Assembly (NCBI GenBank): GCA_027069135.1
Contig: JALXFE010000134.1
Coordinates: 4,684-68,683, forward strand
From: Thermoanaerobaculia bacterium
GTDB lineage: Bacteria > Acidobacteriota > Thermoanaerobaculia > Multivoradales > JAHZIX01
Direction of reading: 5' to 3'
DNA length: 64,000 nucleotides
Shown here in pieces: positions 1 to 61,503 of this stretch. Under the pieces are notes generated by a model. It worked only from the letters and a program-made list of their open reading frames with translations, made no database searches and was not told the origin of the DNA. Each line of letters starts with the position of its first letter. The first letter of the stretch is position 1. Made by a program: the position numbers and the translations under genes.

Positions 1-22
1 CGAGGATACGGAATCTATCCAT
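1..22 (-). CDS. 5' end of a gene running off the window (MDRFRIL...), possibly MurA
   Basis: ATG at 22 overlaps the prmC TGA (TGATG coupling). MDRFRI resembles MurA N-termini, but only 7 codons are visible. Confidence 0.4.
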
Positions 23-906
23 CAGTGTTCCTTCTTCTCGTTCTTGTTCTCGTTTTCCTCGCGTCGGGCGAGAATCACGGTTCGGGGAATTTTCCCATAG
101 TCTCTGATCTCGCGAATCACCTGCCATCCTGCCTCCCGTCCGAAAGATTTCACCGCCGCCAGCTGCCCGAAGCCGATCTCGACCAGGACCCGGGCCCCGC
201 GGGCCAGCCCCCGGGCCTCCTCGAGGAGGCGCCGAAGCAAGGCGAGGCCATTGTCCGGGGCAAATAAGGCCAAATGTGGCTCGAAATCGCGGACATCTCG
301 GGGCAACGTAGAAGCGTCTTCTTTCGCGACGTAGGGAGGATTGCTGACCAGAAGGTGGATTTTCGAAAGGTCGAGGGGGCTGAGCAAGTCGGCGGCGGCG
401 AAGTGGATCCGATCTTCCACACCATGGAGCTGGGCATTGCCCCGAGCCAGGGCCAAGGCGGCCGGAGAGAGGTCCGTAGCGATGATCCGTGCCGTGGGGA
501 TCTCCAACGCCAAGGTGACGGCGAGACAACCGGAGCCGGTTCCCACATCGAGGATCCGGAGGTTCTCGGGAAGCCCTGGCATCGTCAGAACAGCCTCCAC
601 GAGATGCTCGGTTTCCGGCCGCGGGATCAACACGCGGTCATCGACAAGAAATTTCCGGCCGTAGAATTCCTTGCGGCCGAGGAGGTAGGCCGCTGGTTCG
701 CCCCGGCATCGCCGACGGATGAGGTCTTCGAACCGTCGGGCGACCTTTGCCGGTAGCCTCTGGTCGTCACGGGTCAGGATCTGTGCCTCGGAATAGCCCA
801 GGAGATAACCCAACAGGAGGGAGCTTTCTCGGGGCGCGATCTCGGGATCCGCGGTCTGGAGAGCTCGCCGCCCTCGCCGGAGGGCGGCTGCGATGGTTTC
901 TTCCAC
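22..906 (-). CDS. prmC: Release factor glutamine N5-methyltransferase (HemK/PrmC)
   Basis: Motifs GEPAAYLLGRKEFYG, VLIPRPETE, LDVGTGSG and SNPPY. Confidence 0.97.
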   Translation of the reverse strand: MEETIAAALRRGRRALQTADPEIAPRESSLLLGYLLGYSEAQILTRDDQRLPAKVARRFEDLIRRRCRGEPAAYLLGRKEFYGRKFLVDDRVLIPRPETEHLVEAVLTMPGLPENLRILDVGTGSGCLAVTLALEIPTARIIATDLSPAALALARGNAQLHGVEDRIHFAAADLLSPLDLSKIHLLVSNPPYVAKEDASTLPRDVRDFEPHLALFAPDNGLALLRRLLEEARGLARGARVLVEIGFGQLAAVKSFGREAGWQVIREIRDYGKIPRTVILARREENENKNEKKEH

Positions 907-1005
907 CGGCGGATTGTATGGGAGTTGGGGGATTCGGCGAAGCCGATCAGGGCTGCGCCGGAACGATGGACCTCGCGAGGGTAACTCGAGCCCGACCTCG
1001 GGCGG

Positions 1006-2190
1006 TCAGGGTCGCTTCGCCCCTCCAGGGAGACCCGTGGGAAGTGGTGCTCCGGCGTTGGCCGCAAGCTCGGCTAAGGCTTGGTCGATCTCCGCTAGGA
1101 CTTCGGCTTCGCCCTCCGTCTCCCGAGCGCCTGTGAGAGCCCGCAGGGCCGGCTCCCCGCCGATACGTCCCAGGGCCCAGGCCGCGTGACAGCGCACTGC
1201 CGCGTGCTCCTCCTGTGCCAGAGCCGTGGCCAGGGGAGCGACGTATTTTTCGTCCCCGCGGTTGCCCATCGCCGTTGCGGCGTTGCGCTTGAGTCCTTCG
1301 AGGCGAGCCCTTTGCATGGCGCTGCCACGGAAGCGCTCCCGATACTCGTCCCGGGGCAGGGCCAGCAGCTGGATGAGGTCCAGGTCCTGACGTTGAGAGG
1401 GGAGATGAAAATCCGTCTCCTCACCGACCGGTCCCTTGCGGATGTTCCAGGGGCAGACCTCCTGGCAGATATCGCAGCCAAAGACCCAATCGCCGATCTG
1501 GCGCCGCATTTCCCGGGGAACGGATTCCCGGTGTTCGATCGTCCAGTAACTGATGCAGCGGCTGCTGTCGAGGTGGAAGGGCTCCGAGAGGGCCTCCGTC
1601 GGGCAGGCTTCGAGACATCGGGTACAGCGCCCGCAGAGATCGGTAAGGGGCTCGTCGGGGGGAAGCTCCAGGGTGAGAAGAATCTCCCCCAGGAGGAACC
1701 AGGAACCCTCGCGGCGGAGCAGGCAGGTGTTTTTCCCGACCACGCCGAGGCCCGCCTTAGCGGCCAGCTCTCGTTCCAAGACGGGCCCGGTGTCCACATA
1801 GGCGCGGGTCTGGCAGGGCGCGAATTCTTCCCGGAGGGTCTTCGCGAGGCGCTTCAGCCGCTTGCCCATGAGGTTGTGGTAGTCCCGACCGTGAGCATAA
1901 CGAGCAACACGGGGCCAGAGGTCTCCCGAGGGCTCTTCCGCGTCTGCCAGGGGCCAGTATTGCAGCGCAACGCAGAGGGCGGATCGAGCTCCCGGGAGGA
2001 TTGTTCTGGGGTCCAGGCGCTCTTCCACCCGCTGCGCCAGGTATTCCATACCGGCGTGGTGTCCTTTCTTGAGCCAGCTCCGGTAGGCCTCACCGTGGGG
2101 AGAGGGTTCCAGCCGGGCCACTCCGACTCGATCAAAGCCCCTCTCCGAGGCGAGCTCTCGGAGGCGAGCCACGATACCTGCCGGATCCAC
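1006..2190 (-). CDS. queG: tRNA epoxyqueuosine(34) reductase QueG with C-terminal HEAT-like repeat
   Basis: ARYAHGRDYH, VDTGPVLERELA, CGRCTRCLEACPT and FGCDICQEVCPWN. Start set at GTG 2190, just after the upstream stop. Confidence 0.95.
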   Translation of the reverse strand: MDPAGIVARLRELASERGFDRVGVARLEPSPHGEAYRSWLKKGHHAGMEYLAQRVEERLDPRTILPGARSALCVALQYWPLADAEEPSGDLWPRVARYAHGRDYHNLMGKRLKRLAKTLREEFAPCQTRAYVDTGPVLERELAAKAGLGVVGKNTCLLRREGSWFLLGEILLTLELPPDEPLTDLCGRCTRCLEACPTEALSEPFHLDSSRCISYWTIEHRESVPREMRRQIGDWVFGCDICQEVCPWNIRKGPVGEETDFHLPSQRQDLDLIQLLALPRDEYRERFRGSAMQRARLEGLKRNAATAMGNRGDEKYVAPLATALAQEEHAAVRCHAAWALGRIGGEPALRALTGARETEGEAEVLAEIDQALAELAANAGAPLPTGLPGGAKRP

Positions 2191-22348: not shown

Positions 22349-23920
22349 ATGGGGCGAGGCGCGAAGCGTTGGCTGCCGGGTACAGCGTGTAGTCTGAAGA
22401 TTTGGTGCACCGTGGCCTTGGGCCTCGTTCACCCGCTGGAGGTGCGGGCCGGCGGCGGGACACCGTTCGTCGATATGACGGTCGCTTCCGGCATCACCGC
22501 AGTTCATCAGGCTAGGTACTTGGTTACCGGGCAGGCCTGGGGTGACTATGATCGCGACGGTTTCCCGGATCTCTACGTTACCGATGGCGGCGGCCCCAAC
22601 ACTCTCTACCGCAATAATGGCGATGGGACGTTTTCGGTGTCACCTTTCTCAGTCACCGTCGCGCTGCCGACCTTGGAGAGCGGGGGGGCGGTGTTCGCCG
22701 ACTACAACAACGATGGCTGGCCGGATTTGTACGTCCTCAACCGTGGCGCCAATGCGCTGTACCGCAACGATGGGGGGCAGGGGTTCACCAACGTCGCTGC
22801 CGCTGCCGGAGTAGGGGATATGGGCCAAGGGGAGTCTGCCACCTGGGGGGATTACAACCGGGACGGTTGGGCGGATCTCTATGTGGTGAATTGGTATAAC
22901 AACGACGACGAAAGCTCACCCTTCTCCCGCGATACCTTCTACAAGAACAATGGGGACGGAACGTTCACGGACGTTTCCGGGCTCTTGGATCCCACCCGAA
23001 TGGAAGGGCCGGGATATGCGGCGACCTTCGTCGACTACGACAACGACGCCGACCAGGACCTCTACGTGGTCATCGACAAGAATTGGGGCAACCTCTTGTT
23101 CCGCAACGACGGCCCCGGCTGTGGCGGCTGGTGCTTTACGGATGTGTCTTTGGCCACCGGTGCTCACCGGCCCGTTTGGGGCATGGGAATTTCCACTGGG
23201 GATTATGACCTCGATGGCGATTTGGACTTCTATTTCTCGAGCATTGGGGAGCAGGTTCTCCTCCAGAACCAGACGGCCCAGGGAAATCCGGTTTTTGTTG
23301 AAGTAACGCTTGCCGCCGGGGTTGGACCGGATGCCATCGGCTGGGGCTCGGTTTTCTTTGACTATGACCGCGACGGCTGGCTGGACCTTTATCTTTCGGC
23401 GGCTCTGTCTCCCAACTTTCTCTTTCGGAACCGGGGCGATGGGACCTTCGAGGAGATCGTGGCGGGTAGCGGAGCAGACCATGCCGGGTTTTCCATCGGA
23501 GTGGCCAAGGCGGACTACGATGCCGATGGCCGGCAAGATCTGGTGGTGGGCAACTATGATCTCGGTTATTCCCTTTATCGCAACAACCTAGCGAACGATC
23601 ACGGTTGGCTCAGCATTCACCTCGAGGGTCGTGGGCCGGTCACCCGAGACGCTCTCGGGACGCGGGTGGTGATCCTCTTGAGCGATGGTCGGATTTTCAC
23701 GGAAGAGGTGACCAGCGATTCGAGCCTGGGTGCGGGTAACGAGTTGGCGTTGTTTTTTGGGTTCGGCGTCGCGACGCCGGTTTCCGCCTTGATTTTCTGG
23801 CCCGACGGCACCACGGAACAGCTGGACTCCGTGCCCATGAACACCCGATGGCATCATCTATATCCCATCCTTTTCGCCGACGGTTTCGAGAGCGGCGACA
23901 CCTCAGCCTGGAGCGGTTGA
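22349..23920 (+). CDS. CRTAC1-family secreted protein (FG-GAP/VCBS repeats + ASPIC/UnbV), copy 1
   Basis: Repeated DYxxDGxxDLYV and LYRNxGDGTF, DALGTRV...LFFGFG...IFWPDG ASPIC/UnbV domain, tail LFADGFESGDTSAWSG. Confidence 0.9.
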   Translation: MGRGAKRWLPGTACSLKIWCTVALGLVHPLEVRAGGGTPFVDMTVASGITAVHQARYLVTGQAWGDYDRDGFPDLYVTDGGGPNTLYRNNGDGTFSVSPFSVTVALPTLESGGAVFADYNNDGWPDLYVLNRGANALYRNDGGQGFTNVAAAAGVGDMGQGESATWGDYNRDGWADLYVVNWYNNDDESSPFSRDTFYKNNGDGTFTDVSGLLDPTRMEGPGYAATFVDYDNDADQDLYVVIDKNWGNLLFRNDGPGCGGWCFTDVSLATGAHRPVWGMGISTGDYDLDGDLDFYFSSIGEQVLLQNQTAQGNPVFVEVTLAAGVGPDAIGWGSVFFDYDRDGWLDLYLSAALSPNFLFRNRGDGTFEEIVAGSGADHAGFSIGVAKADYDADGRQDLVVGNYDLGYSLYRNNLANDHGWLSIHLEGRGPVTRDALGTRVVILLSDGRIFTEEVTSDSSLGAGNELALFFGFGVATPVSALIFWPDGTTEQLDSVPMNTRWHHLYPILFADGFESGDTSAWSG

Positions 23921-23951: not shown

Positions 23952-25523
23952 ATGCACAAGGATTTATGGGTCTTGGGGCTTTACCCGTGCCGTGTGGGGT
24001 CGTCCCTACTCGGCTTAGCAATTCTCCTAGGGCCTTGGCAATCGGCGCATGCCGGCGCGGGAGCACCGTTTTCTGATGTGACGGCTTCAGCAGGTATTTC
24101 GGCGCAGCATCACATCCGCTACCTCGTGACCGGTCAGGCTTGGGGAGACTACGACGGCGATGGCTTTCCGGACCTCTACGTCACCGATAGCGCTGGGCCG
24201 AACACCCTGTACCGCAATGATGGAGACGGGACGTTCTCCGTCTCGCCCTATTCGGCGGCGGTCGCACTTTTGGGGGTCGAAAGCGGCGGCGCGGTCTTCG
24301 GCGACTACAACAACGACGGCTTCAAGGATCTTTACGTCCTGAACCGCGGAGCCAACACCCTCTACCGCAATGACGGTGGCCAGGGATTCACGGACGTCAC
24401 GGCGTCTGCGGGGGTGGGGGACGGCGGTCAAGGGGAGTCCGCTACCTGGGGGGATTACAACTCCGACGGTCATCCGGATCTCTACGTGGTCAATTGGTAT
24501 TACTTCGAGGACGAAGAGTCACCTTTGTCCCGAGATACCCTGTACCGCAACAATGGAGACGGAACCTTCTCCGATGTTTCTTCTCTGTTGGATATCGGCC
24601 GCCTCATAGGGCCCGGTTTTGCCGCCACGTTCATGGACTATGACAACGACGGCGACCAAGATCTTTACGTCGTCATCGACAAGCGGTGGGGAAATCTGCT
24701 CTATCGCAACGATGGTCCGGGCTGTACGGGTTGGTGCTTTACCGATGTTTCCGTGGCCACCGGGGCGGATCGTCCGATCTGTGGCATGGGGATCAGCACC
24801 GGAGATTATGACAACGACGGCGACCTCGACTTCTACTTTTCCGGCAATTGGGAGCAGGTTCTCCTTCAGAACCAGACGGCCCAGGGCAGTGCAAGCTTTG
24901 TGGAGGTTTCGGTGGCGGCGGGCGTGACCCCGAGCGTCGTCGGTTGGGGTTCAGTCTTTTTCGACTACGATCAGGATGGGTGGCTGGACCTCTATCTCTC
25001 TGCAGCCCTCTACCCGAACCATCTCTTCCGGAATCGAGGTGACGGCACCTTCGAGACGATCGTGGCCGGCAGCGGCGCCGATCACGAGGGATTTTCTATG
25101 GGAGTGGCCCAGGCGGACTACGATCGGGATGGTCGCCCCGATCTCTTGGTCGGCAACCATGGCCTCGGCTATTCGCTCTACCGGAACAACGGGGGGAGTA
25201 GCAATCATTGGATGAGCCTGCGTCTCGAAGGCCGGGGGTCGGTGACCCGGGACGCCCTGGGCACCCGTGTATTGATGATCCTAGATGATGGCCGGGTGCT
25301 CACCCAGGAAGTCAAGAGCGATTCGAGCCTTGGAGCTGGCAACGACTTGACTCTGTTCTTCGGCTTTGGCGCGGCGACACCGGTAGCCGCGATGATCGTC
25401 TGGCCGGATGGGACCGTCGAGTACCAGACTTCGCTGACCCTCGACGGTCACTGGGATCACATCTACCCGATTCTCTTCGCCGATGGCTTCGAAAGCGGCG
25501 ATACCTCCGCCTGGAGCGGCTGA
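23952..25523 (+). CDS. CRTAC1-family secreted protein (FG-GAP/VCBS repeats + ASPIC/UnbV), copy 2
   Basis: Co-linear paralog of the preceding ORF, same length (523 aa) and same C-terminal tail. Confidence 0.9.
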   Translation: MHKDLWVLGLYPCRVGSSLLGLAILLGPWQSAHAGAGAPFSDVTASAGISAQHHIRYLVTGQAWGDYDGDGFPDLYVTDSAGPNTLYRNDGDGTFSVSPYSAAVALLGVESGGAVFGDYNNDGFKDLYVLNRGANTLYRNDGGQGFTDVTASAGVGDGGQGESATWGDYNSDGHPDLYVVNWYYFEDEESPLSRDTLYRNNGDGTFSDVSSLLDIGRLIGPGFAATFMDYDNDGDQDLYVVIDKRWGNLLYRNDGPGCTGWCFTDVSVATGADRPICGMGISTGDYDNDGDLDFYFSGNWEQVLLQNQTAQGSASFVEVSVAAGVTPSVVGWGSVFFDYDQDGWLDLYLSAALYPNHLFRNRGDGTFETIVAGSGADHEGFSMGVAQADYDRDGRPDLLVGNHGLGYSLYRNNGGSSNHWMSLRLEGRGSVTRDALGTRVLMILDDGRVLTQEVKSDSSLGAGNDLTLFFGFGAATPVAAMIVWPDGTVEYQTSLTLDGHWDHIYPILFADGFESGDTSAWSG

Positions 25524-58590: not shown

Positions 58591-61503
58591 GTGATTCTGA
58601 GGACGCGTTGGACTATCGCCGTTGTTTTTCTGACTCTCGCTGCCGCCCCGCTTCGAGGCCAGAGCTTTGTCAACTGGGAGAATTCTCATGTCCACCCGGT
58701 GGACTTAGCGGCCGGCGGAGATCTTCTTCTGGTGGTCAACACCGCGGATAACCGGCTTGAGATCTTCGACGCCACGGGGCCGCTTCCGCAGGCCATGGCT
58801 TCCGTGCCGGTGGGCCTCGATCCGGTGAGTGTGCGTGCCCGAACGGCGACCCAGGCCTGGGTGGTCAACCATATTTCAGATTCCATCAGCGTCGTCGATC
58901 TGACGACGCTCAACGTCACGGCCACTCTGGCGACGGCCGATGAGCCGGCGGACGTGATCTTCGCGGGTACCCCTCAGCGTGCCTTTGTGACGTGTTCCCA
59001 AGCCAATCTCATTCTCGTGTTCGACCCGGCCAACCTCTCGGCGGCACCTATCGAAGTGCCCATCGACGGCGAGGATCCCCGGGCCTTGGCGGCCTCCGCC
59101 GACGGTTCCAAGGTCTACGCCGCAATTTTCGAATCCGGGAACGCCTCTACGGTTCTTGGCGGCGGGACCACCCGGGGCGGCTTTCCCCCGAACGTCGTCA
59201 ACGAGCCAACGGGACCCCACGGCGGAACCAACCCCCCTCCCAACAGTGGTTCCGGGTTCGTTCCCTCCATCCGCCCGGAGTACGCCCCCGGGGGGGCCAA
59301 CCCAGCTCCGGCGGTGGGGATGATCGTCAAGAAGGACGGCGCAGATCGGTGGATGGACGACAACGGCGGCGATTGGACGGCCTTTGTAACCGGTCCCCAA
59401 GCGGCGAGTTCCGGTCGTCTCGTCGGCTGGGATTTGCCGGATCATGATGTCGCCGTCGTCGATACCTCGACCTTGAGCGTCAGCTATGCCACGGGGTTGA
59501 TGAACCTGGTGATGGCCTTAGCGGTGCATCCGACCAGTGGAGAGATCACCGCTGTCGGCACCGACGCCACCAACGAAGTTCGTTTCGAACCGAATATCAA
59601 GGGACGTTTCCTGCGGGTGAACTTGGGCCTGGTGGCGCCCGGGAGCCTCGGTTCGGGCACCGTGGTGGACCTAAACGCCGGGCACCTCGACTATTCCGAT
59701 GCCCAGGTCGCAGCCCAGAACACCACCGCCACCGCCAGCCAAGCGCTGCGGGATCAATCTCTCGGGGATCCCCGGGGAATCGTCTGGAATAGCGCGGGCA
59801 GCCGAGGCTACGTCGCGGGCATGGGCTCTAACAACGTCGTGGTCATCGACGCGGCAGGGGGGAGACTCAATCCCTTGGGGGCGCCTGCCGATCCCGCCAT
59901 CGAGGTTGGAGAGGGGCCGACGGGGCTGGTCTTGGATAGCGCCCGACAGCGTCTCTACGTGGTCAACAAATTCTCCGGTAGCGTTTCGGTGATCGATACG
60001 GCGACGGAGCAAGGGATCGGTGAGGTGGCATTTTTCGACCCGACGCCGGCACCCATCCGCTCCGGGCGCCGCCATCTATACAACACCCGTCAGACCTCCG
60101 GCCTCGGTCATACCTCCTGTGGCTCGTGCCACGCGGACGCCCGTATGGATCGCCTATCTTGGGATCTCGGGAACCCCGCCGCCGACATGAAGATTTTGAA
60201 CTCTACCCCTGGGCAGCACAATCTGGGGATGAATCTTCCAGGATTGAATCAGGGATTTGAGGATTTTCATCCCATGAAGGGCCCCATGACGACCCAGACC
60301 CTCCAGGACATCATTGGCAAAGAGCCCTTCCATTGGCGGGGAGACCGGGACGGTCTGGAGGAATTCAACGGGGCCTTCGTCGGGCTGTTGGGAGATGACG
60401 TCCAGTTGACCCCGACGGAGATGCAGGAGTTCGAGGATTTCCTCGCCTCGATCCACTATCCTCCCAACCCGTTCCGGAATCTCGACAACTCCCTCCCACA
60501 GAGTCTTTCTCTCGCCGGACATTTCTCCAACGGGCGCTTCGCGGCCCAGGGGGGGCTCGCGTCCGGGGATCCTCTGCCCGTCGGCGATGCGCTCAACGGG
60601 TTGGCCCTGTTTCGACCGCCGTCCACCCTGGACGGCCCCTTGGCCTGCATCACCTGCCATGCCCTACCCACCGGTGCCGGAGCCGATGTGACCCTGGTCG
60701 GGACGACCTTGCAGGATTTGCCGGCCGGGCCCAACGGGGAGCGGCATCTGGCTTTGGTGTCCATCGATGGTTCCACCAACGTGACGATGAAAACCCCACA
60801 CCTGCGCAATCTCTATGAAAAGGTGGGGTTCGAGGCGACCGGGCTCTCCAATCGGGCCGGTGCGGGCTTCGGCCACGACGGCGCTATCGATTCCATTGCC
60901 CGTTTCGTTTCGGAGCCCGTCTTCAGCGTCGCCAACGACCAGGAAGTGGCGGATCTCGTAGCCTTTATGCTGGCCTTGTCCGGTTCGGACTTGCCCGTGG
61001 GTTCCCGCAACGCGTTCAATCTGGAACCCCCGGGGCCACCGAGCCTCGACAGCCATGCCGCGGTGGGCGTCCAGCTGACCTTCGACGCCTCCAACCGGAA
61101 CGATCCCGGCAGCGTGGCGCGACTCGCGGAGCTCCAGGCCTTGGCGGATGCCGGTGCCGTGGGCCTGGTGGCGAAAGGGCGCCAAGGAGCTTTGCTGAGG
61201 GGGTACGAGTACTTGGGCGGCGGCAATCTGCAGAGTGATCGAGGGGCTGAGACGCTCACAGTAGACGCCCTACGCGGCTCCGCGGACACGGGGGCCGAAG
61301 TCACCTTCACAGTCGTTCCTGCCGGCAGCCAGGAACGGATTGGCATCGATCGGGACGAAGACGGTTTCTTCGATCGGGACGAGCTCGACAGCTGCAGCGA
61401 CCCGGCAGATGCCGGCAGCGTGCCGGGCGCCACCCCTTGCTCGATGTTCAGTGATGGTTTCGAAAGCGGGGACTTGAGCGCCTGGTCGGCGACGAGTCCC
61501 TAG
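58591..61503 (+). CDS. Secreted YVTN-type beta-propeller fused to di-heme cytochrome c (CcP/MauG-like) domain
   Basis: Propeller repeats (VGLDPVSV, LYVVNKFSGSVSVID), heme motifs CGSCH and CITCH, FHWRGDR, TPHLRNL, tail FSDGFESGDLSAWS. Confidence 0.85.
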   Translation: MILRTRWTIAVVFLTLAAAPLRGQSFVNWENSHVHPVDLAAGGDLLLVVNTADNRLEIFDATGPLPQAMASVPVGLDPVSVRARTATQAWVVNHISDSISVVDLTTLNVTATLATADEPADVIFAGTPQRAFVTCSQANLILVFDPANLSAAPIEVPIDGEDPRALAASADGSKVYAAIFESGNASTVLGGGTTRGGFPPNVVNEPTGPHGGTNPPPNSGSGFVPSIRPEYAPGGANPAPAVGMIVKKDGADRWMDDNGGDWTAFVTGPQAASSGRLVGWDLPDHDVAVVDTSTLSVSYATGLMNLVMALAVHPTSGEITAVGTDATNEVRFEPNIKGRFLRVNLGLVAPGSLGSGTVVDLNAGHLDYSDAQVAAQNTTATASQALRDQSLGDPRGIVWNSAGSRGYVAGMGSNNVVVIDAAGGRLNPLGAPADPAIEVGEGPTGLVLDSARQRLYVVNKFSGSVSVIDTATEQGIGEVAFFDPTPAPIRSGRRHLYNTRQTSGLGHTSCGSCHADARMDRLSWDLGNPAADMKILNSTPGQHNLGMNLPGLNQGFEDFHPMKGPMTTQTLQDIIGKEPFHWRGDRDGLEEFNGAFVGLLGDDVQLTPTEMQEFEDFLASIHYPPNPFRNLDNSLPQSLSLAGHFSNGRFAAQGGLASGDPLPVGDALNGLALFRPPSTLDGPLACITCHALPTGAGADVTLVGTTLQDLPAGPNGERHLALVSIDGSTNVTMKTPHLRNLYEKVGFEATGLSNRAGAGFGHDGAIDSIARFVSEPVFSVANDQEVADLVAFMLALSGSDLPVGSRNAFNLEPPGPPSLDSHAAVGVQLTFDASNRNDPGSVARLAELQALADAGAVGLVAKGRQGALLRGYEYLGGGNLQSDRGAETLTVDALRGSADTGAEVTFTVVPAGSQERIGIDRDEDGFFDRDELDSCSDPADAGSVPGATPCSMFSDGFESGDLSAWSATSP

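Follow-up and report, generated by a model that had tools for sequence, protein, structure and literature searches.

In the cellulosome, a dockerin, which is a calcium-binding module of about 70 residues, pairs with a cohesin, and the scaffoldins are anchored by SLH domains. Donor-strand complementation and exchange are known from chaperone-usher and type V pili, where a strand-deficient fold is completed by another polypeptide. Two further kinds of system are the tripartite C-terminal signals, read by a cognate enzyme (LPXTG by sortase, PEP-CTERM by exosortase, GlyGly-CTERM by rhombosortase), and the C-terminal domain (CTD) of the type IX secretion system (T9SS), an address of secreted enzymes. 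Here, we describe a stretch of 64,000 nucleotides from a Thermoanaerobaculia bacterium (assembly GCA_027069135.1, contig JALXFE010000134.1, positions 4,684 to 68,683; the window), in which three exported proteins end in the tail F-x-D-G-F-E-S-G-D-x-S-A-W-S, as was read directly from the ends of their open reading frames (ORFs). We suggest tentatively, at less than an even chance, that one bacterial order has cut a lectin-like jelly roll at its second hairpin turn: some 60 exoenzymes and adhesins in each genome would bear its 18-residue head, and the secreted body would be their common receptor in the cell coat, onto which the enzymes would snap by completion of the fold.

This arrangement resembles dockerin and cohesin in that one short module is found on many secreted enzymes and a single receptor is proposed, which is SLH-anchored in two relatives (G013 and G023; genomes, contigs, loci and families carry our working labels). 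It differs in that the tag has 18 residues and that tag and receptor would be parts of a single fold instead of a fold each. Pfam gave no match to the dockerin family (PF00404, a duplicated calcium-binding loop-helix) on the tails of the scanned tagged proteins. With the pili it would share the strand-deficient fold that another polypeptide completes, but the fold in question is a ConA-like jelly roll, a strand-loop-strand element would act as the donor, and enzymes and a receptor would be the partners instead of pilins that polymerise; neither a chaperone nor an usher was seen. As an analogy, the system would be dockerin-like in its logic and pilus-like in its mechanism, with the defining features of neither family.

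Like the tripartite signals, the tail is short, C-terminal and shared by many unrelated proteins that one lineage exports. Unlike them, it ends in ...GDTSAWSATAP, without a hydrophobic helix or a basic end. The initial annotation had set it apart from LPXTG, PEP-CTERM and GlyGly-CTERM on this ground, and rightly so: no NCBIfam or Pfam sorting model matches it, and the NCBIfam CTERM models gave no match to the three window proteins at E≤1. The T9SS CTD is comparable as a C-terminal address, and a whole beta-sandwich-type domain is found at the same place in relatives, but the tail has 18 residues against 80-100 in the CTD, and neither PF18962 nor TIGR04183 matched in 57 tagged proteins. Finally, the parent domain described below has the fold of the polysaccharide lyase (PL) jelly rolls (2ZZJ, PF14099), from which it differs by a sequence similarity under the Pfam cut-off; no solved relative is split in two. 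A literature search at the level of listings and abstracts returned nothing on the motif or on such a display by trans-completion.

A C-terminal tail on exported proteins

The source genome (G000) is an assembly of 7.17 Mb in 626 contigs with 62% GC. In its six-frame ORFs of at least 60 residues, the core F.[DN]GFE.G occurred 62 times, as compared to 0.23 expected from composition, and the reversed motif occurred once. A stop codon was at most 35 residues away in 47 of the 62 cases, against 25% of ORF positions. When the genome was searched with a profile of the tail, 61 ORFs were found to terminate in it. These tails are 15-20 residues long, and in 42 of them the distance from the initial F to the stop is exactly 18 residues. 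Both counts bear out the expectation of the initial annotation that the motif is found proteome-wide and mainly at the C-terminus. It is mostly, not strictly, C-terminal, since the remaining profile matches were internal or N-terminal, about 11 of them inside RHS-repeat proteins and about six just past the signal peptide of giant Ig-repeat proteins.

A signal-peptide-like start was present in 54 of the 61 tailed ORFs, as called by a crude home-made heuristic that clearly over-calls a few cases, and two of the remainder are cut by contig ends. One carrier, a DUF1501 protein (C182:97423-98778, L038), has a twin-arginine-type (Tat) N-terminus (..TRRGFVAG..), and therefore folded Tat substrates appear to be tagged too. 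The Pfam scan covered 54 of the 61 ORFs and the three window proteins, with four very short or cut ORFs left out. Proteases among the 54 were six M36 fungalysins and one protein with the propeptide motif only, three reprolysin-like M12B proteins and three S8 subtilases. Four more FG-GAP proteins (three with ASPIC), two GSDH, two beta-helix, two HZS_alpha and three BNR/sortilin proteins were also found, together with single carriers of GH114, DUF1501, LRR, NHL, LVIVD, ThuA, GDSL-like, PKD, CarboxypepD_reg and DUF11. In 17 of the 54, no Pfam family was present. The tail, itself covered by no Pfam or NCBIfam model in these scans, is thus a tag shared by exported proteins of many families, as the initial annotation had supposed from three.

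In two of five tail-free relatives searched, M36 homologues were found, and these end untailed in P-domain-like or DUF11 regions. This shows merely that the tail is an add-on. In the source genome, three M36 genes form a tandem trio (C346:621-8367; L015, L002, L003) in which every gene ends in the tail, and one of them also has a P-domain and a purple-acid-phosphatase-N-like domain.

The elements at other positions were inspected as well. The RHS-repeat proteins on contigs C11, C90, C221, C231, C486, C586 and C141 (L193-L198) have an internal head motif, ..TVFTDGFETGDTRCWAGSVGDPNPP.., about 85 residues ahead of the RHS core PF03527, in a near-identical segment that is repeated on many short contigs. 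Five to six giant Ig-repeat proteins of 1300-1600 residues (C624, C525, C263, C438, C2; L188-L191), made of Glucodextran_B, Big_13 and CarboxypepD_reg Ig-like repeats, carry the head-only element APIFLDGFESGDYFGWS directly past the signal peptide, followed by a Pro-rich linker. With such N-terminal and internal copies the element is not tied to a free C-terminus, which speaks against a signal that needs one. The N-terminal elements fit a docking peptide that acts independently of its position.

Relation of the tail to a jelly-roll domain

Four giant adhesin-like ORFs of the source genome (contigs C492, C594, C149 and C125) terminate in a tandem array of two or three domains, each about 200 residues long, with the motif at the start and ...G-x-x-Y-F-D-x-F-x-x-W at the end of every one. 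The tails map to positions 3-20 of a profile built from these intact copies, and the spacing from E to W is equal. In the AlphaFold2 (AF2) model of one intact copy (predicted local distance difference test, pLDDT, 95.2; predicted template modelling score, pTM, 0.91), the domain is a ConA-like jelly roll. Its head consists of a strand at residues 2-7, a loop at 8-18 (GFESGD-x-S-x-W) and a strand at 19-24, the body starts from the strand at 27-31, and the tail spans the head up to about residue 22. The closest solved fold was the PL20 glucuronan lyase 2ZZJ (Z 19.6, root mean square deviation 2.5 over 191 residues; Foldseek E 2.8e-10). Positions 1-45 of PF14099 (Polysacc_lyase) matched the head region with 19.2 bits (E 0.0012), under the gathering cut-off of 29.9 bits. 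Judged from profile and model, the tail is the detached N-terminal strand-loop-strand, about 20 residues long, of a ConA-like jelly-roll domain.

Whole domain and tail were also found on homologous enzymes. An S8 protease in the relative G026 bears the whole domain, and its homologue in the source genome bears the tail alone. Similarly, in a protein of G153, which belongs to another class, the head motif runs into a jelly roll, and the GSDH homologue of the source genome has the tail alone; the GSDH-like label of the G153 protein (L282) is a judgement by eye of its N-terminal part. The L282 locus (G153:C15) has two overlapping ORFs, 207-1514 (435 aa) and 1501-1956, with a change of frame after the first part of the jelly roll that is due to a frameshift or an assembly error.

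Seven residues were invariant in an alignment of 24 tails, which are rich in D, E, G, S and W. At equal sample size, the tails had 3.7 bits per column and the heads of intact domains 2.6, in sets that were selected by regular expression (53 of 61 tails, 10 of 11 heads) and are biased to well-formed tails. As judged from these alignments, the higher conservation of the tail would count for docking.

Small secreted proteins without a head

The domain profile also found two small proteins in the source genome (C42:20909-21571 and C94:23560-24255). Both match the domain from position 24 onward, directly past a standard signal peptide. The homologues in relatives have about 209-235 residues, with a signal peptide followed by [ST]-L-A-V-T-N-A-A-A..G-x-F-G-L-E-V-T and with the C-terminus Y-x-D-x-F-E-S-F-R, at times extended by T-L-A-A-P. 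An extension past ..FESFR (TLAAP, TLSAP, TLAP or TMLP) was seen in L217, L207, L226, L229, L232 and L223.

These headless proteins form a conserved family that is exactly complementary to the tails. In a joint alignment (A5), 17 of 17 mature small proteins begin at column 31, directly past the 26-residue head of 11 intact copies, and in each of the 17 the signal peptide stands where the head would be. The AF2 model of the C42 protein (pLDDT 86.5) gave a corresponding picture. Against 2ZZJ, the intact model aligned over 1..230 and the headless model over 22..228; against 3GNE the ranges were 2..244 and 27..242, and against 5GMT 1..264 and 33..260. The headless model hence aligns to the solved jelly rolls from their residue 22-33, the intact model from residue 1-2. 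The alignment and the unmatched first 21-33 residues of the solved folds both describe a body that lacks the strands carried by the putative donor. Since the headless proteins start where the head ends, tail and small protein together make up one domain, cut at the turn between strand 2 and strand 3.

In searches against Pfam and the sequences of the PDB, the headless family gave nothing significant; the best scores were E 0.01 with PF14099, for one of eight members, and E 0.93 with a PDB chain. A profile of the family, run against 1.84 billion representatives, found 4207 proteins at E≤0.001. Among the best 150 of these 4207 were 22 small proteins (206-234 aa) that matched from position 1-8, and the others were multi-domain proteins. 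A search with a single protein had found the headless gene in 9 of 41 relatives and was superseded by the profile search; it recovers few of the genes because the family diverges fast.

Distribution of the tail and the headless gene

The tail was followed through 41 relatives of the same order with a DNA pattern for F-x-D-G-F-E-[ST]-G-D, the backwards version of which gave no match in any of them. The motif was present in 27 of the 41, with up to 104 copies per genome, and absent in 14, including the whole families f5, f7 and f8, whose genomes are 96-100% complete. In a sample of the phylum (151 genomes, at least 90% complete), multiple copies were confined to the order of the window: none of the nine genomes from the other orders of the class had them, and in the other classes 5 of 138 genomes had a single copy.

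A scan of one genome per species found at least 132 loci, mostly labelled as metagenome-assembled genomes of Thermoanaerobaculia, Holophagae or Acidobacteriota. Among the 132 matches listed, 105 reach a stop within 35 codons, typically after 18. In the other 27 the motif continues into a longer domain; these are mostly from other phyla, with Chloroflexota-, Armatimonadota- and Actinomycetota-type labels and one archaeon. Since relatives bear the whole domain on homologous enzymes, the tails might be taken for non-functional remnants of deleted C-terminal jelly rolls. We consider this extremely improbable, given 61 copies in one genome with invariant residues and a fixed end point, the regular stop in the public matches and a conservation above that of the intact heads. 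Because the copies are many, conserved and fixed in their end point, strong purifying selection seems to act on the tails.

A gene was called headless when it encoded a small ORF or an SLH fusion that matched from the start of the profile; the calls were checked by eye in 21 of 23 genomes and rest on the profile match and BLAST clustering in the other two. Five or more motif copies and a headless gene were found together in 20 of the 41 relatives, and fewer than five copies without a headless gene in 16. Two relatives had at least five copies and no headless gene was found (G016, with 56 copies, and G026, with 37 copies in an 89% complete genome), and three (G002, G004 and G020) had the headless gene and fewer than five copies. 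Tail-richness and the headless gene were therefore concordant in 36 of the 41. Presence and absence of the two covary within the families f2, f4, f10 and f11. In the phylum sample, the small headless form was found only in G000, G008 and G014, which are the three tail-rich genomes of that sample.

For a control, the exosortase PF09721 was followed in the same way. It was found in 33 of the 41 relatives, including 12 of the 19 tail-poor ones, and not in the tail-bearing G025. Its concordance with the tail was 28 of 41, and as a reader of the tail it was rejected for this misfit. The result bears on the explanation that a machine of the envelope, such as a processing protease, a ligase or an outer-membrane translocon, reads the tail as a genuine signal for sorting or secretion, with the headless protein unrelated to the tail. 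The extreme C-terminal position, the fixed length, the restriction of exported carriers of many families to one lineage, as is the case for dedicated sorting systems, and the tails of G016, where no headless gene was found, would all agree with such a signal. Nevertheless, we consider it unlikely. No candidate machine was found, the tail has no transmembrane segment, no sorting model matches, and the same element occurs at N-terminal and internal positions. As to a cognate sorting enzyme, only exosortase was searched for among the sortases, and it does not track the tail. Nothing points to the uncharacterised secretion pathway or sorting enzyme that the initial annotation had suggested.

The tails might also pair by strand swapping with the intact or tandem domains of giant adhesin-like proteins and not with the small headless proteins. 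The source genome has four such proteins, and G016 has a cohesin-DUF11 protein that ends in a headed domain. The intact domains own a head, however, the AF2 model is closed and confident, and there was no sign that the heads are displaceable, so that strand swapping is very unlikely. The G016 protein is the sole match to the domain family in that genome (L245, G016:C1, ORF 529-1869, plus strand). It has 446 residues with a signal peptide, DUF11, a cohesin (PF00963, E 4.6e-11) and a short jelly-roll copy that has a head.

Genomic context of the headless gene

We fetched 20 headless loci and annotated 10 of them. In 9 of 9 annotated loci (C42 of the source genome and eight others), the headless gene lies inside a cluster for the synthesis of a surface polysaccharide; this count leaves out the second copy of the source genome (C94), which adjoins an RHS protein outside a polysaccharide cluster. 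The clusters encode GT1/2/4 glycosyltransferases, a priming glycosylphosphotransferase, Wzx and Wzy-type proteins, ABC-2 transporters, an AsnB-type amidotransferase, sulfotransferases, 3'-phosphoadenosine 5'-phosphosulfate (PAPS) synthesis genes, sulfatase-family paralogues and methyltransferases. Sulfatase-family (PF00884) paralogues, as many as four or five in a cluster, were seen together with sulfotransferases (L254, L260, L262, L265, L266, L267, L263), and PAPS synthesis genes in the L253 cluster. The sulfatase, sulfotransferase and PAPS genes near the headless gene hint at a sulfated surface polysaccharide.

In two genomes the headless body is fused to SLH (PF00395; cut-off 20.8), namely G013 (46 bits, E 5e-12) and G023 (45 bits, E 1e-11). 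In the source genome and 20 further genomes, which have the small form, no SLH was found on the headless protein. The fusion gene of G013 stands between an S8 subtilase gene and a gene for a fusion of a glycosyltransferase and a polysaccharide pyruvyl transferase.

A polysaccharide cluster is also a plausible place for an enzyme, and lyase genes sit in other exopolysaccharide operons. The tail could accordingly be an acidic and aromatic hairpin that suffices by itself, binding directly to calcium, to a polysaccharide or to a mineral surface or else capping the C-terminus, without any protein partner, and the small jelly roll could be an exopolysaccharide lyase or lectin. Its composition, rich in D, E, G, S and W, the gene position and the polysaccharide lyases as nearest solved folds of the body would suit this explanation. 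It leaves unexplained that what is missing from the small proteins is precisely what the tail supplies, that both features are restricted to the same genomes, and that there are SLH fusions. We therefore find it quite unlikely.

Tagged genes of the window

The three tagged genes of the window are on the plus strand. The first (22349..23920) encodes a protein of 523 residues with a signal peptide, FG-GAP_3 repeats, UnbV_ASPIC and the tail ILFADGFESGDTSAWSG, followed by the stop (23867..23920), in a short 15-residue form with an independent E-value (i-E) of 3.6e-10 in the tail profile. The second (23952..25523; 523 aa) is its tandem paralogue and ends in the same tail, ILFADGFESGDTSAWSG and stop (25470..25523; i-E 3.7e-10). 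The Pfam matches to FG-GAP_3 and UnbV_ASPIC in both agree with their description as CRTAC1-like. The third gene (58591..61503) encodes 970 residues with a signal peptide, a YVTN-type beta-propeller, a weak di-haem peroxidase-like region and the tail SMFSDGFESGDLSAWSATSP before the stop (61441..61503), in the modal 18-residue form (i-E 4e-09). Of the propeller and di-haem protein seen in it at first, the propeller was recovered (NCBIfam TIGR02276, E 1.2e-21), whereas the di-haem part has only a sub-threshold Pfam match to CCP_MauG (E 0.0023). All three proteins have signal-peptide-like starts by the heuristic described above, in accordance with the export signals noted for them.

Discussion

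We favour, with nearly an even chance, the reading that tail and headless protein are the tag and the receptor of a split domain, by which exported enzymes dock to the surface layer. The tail would provide the head, made of strand 1 and the GFESGD-x-S-x-W loop together with most of strand 2, and the body would extend from strand 3 to the last strand. The body would be exported separately via Sec as a small protein, its mature N-terminus beginning at the end point of the head. The tail would then insert into the headless body and complete its beta-sheet by donor-strand complementation. In this way, one receptor would tether some 60 different exoenzymes together with several giant adhesins that have the head at their N-terminus; this receptor may be tied to the surface polysaccharide layer, as suggested by the polysaccharide-cluster genes and, in some relatives, by the SLH fusions. 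From the complementarity and the co-distribution we infer the physical binding, which may take place in the periplasm or at the surface, and its purpose, the retention or the display of enzymes. The earlier idea that a beta-strand docks into a partner at the surface has thereby gained a concrete candidate partner, the headless jelly roll that is SLH-anchored in two relatives, and the docking itself would still be an extrapolation from it.

Several observations weigh against this reading. No headless gene turned up in tail-rich G016, even with the threshold at E≤1, nor in G026, a genome that is 89% complete. Conversely, the headless gene is present in G002, G004 and G020, where the strict motif occurs 2, 2 and 0 times, respectively; the G004 orthologue of a window protein bears a variant tail outside the strict pattern. 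The co-distribution comprises few effective events because the lineages are related and f5, f7 and f8 lack both features, and the DNA pattern behind the copy numbers also counts the heads of intact domains. Tagged genes stand beside headless genes in 2-3 of 20 loci, with about 2.4 expected, and adjacency was dropped as evidence. In the source genome, the receptor candidate has no recognisable anchor. Modelled alone, the headless protein gives a confident AF2 fold, at the pLDDT given above, and the nearest solved folds of this model are polysaccharide lyases of PL7, PL18, PL20 and PL36 (Z 11-12), so that the small protein may be merely an enzyme of the polysaccharide cluster. An enzyme that processes exopolysaccharide would by itself account for the position of the gene.

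Even without binding, the tail marks the exported proteome of one lineage, is uncatalogued and is worth a family model. If tail and body bind, one fold completed in trans would fasten many exoenzymes to the cell coat. Protein display would then have a new principle, and biotechnology a natural peptide-protein pair. The annotation of thousands of proteins that now have no C-terminal feature would improve. It would also explain how an abundant uncultured lineage of soil and sediment holds its proteases and other hydrolases near the cell.

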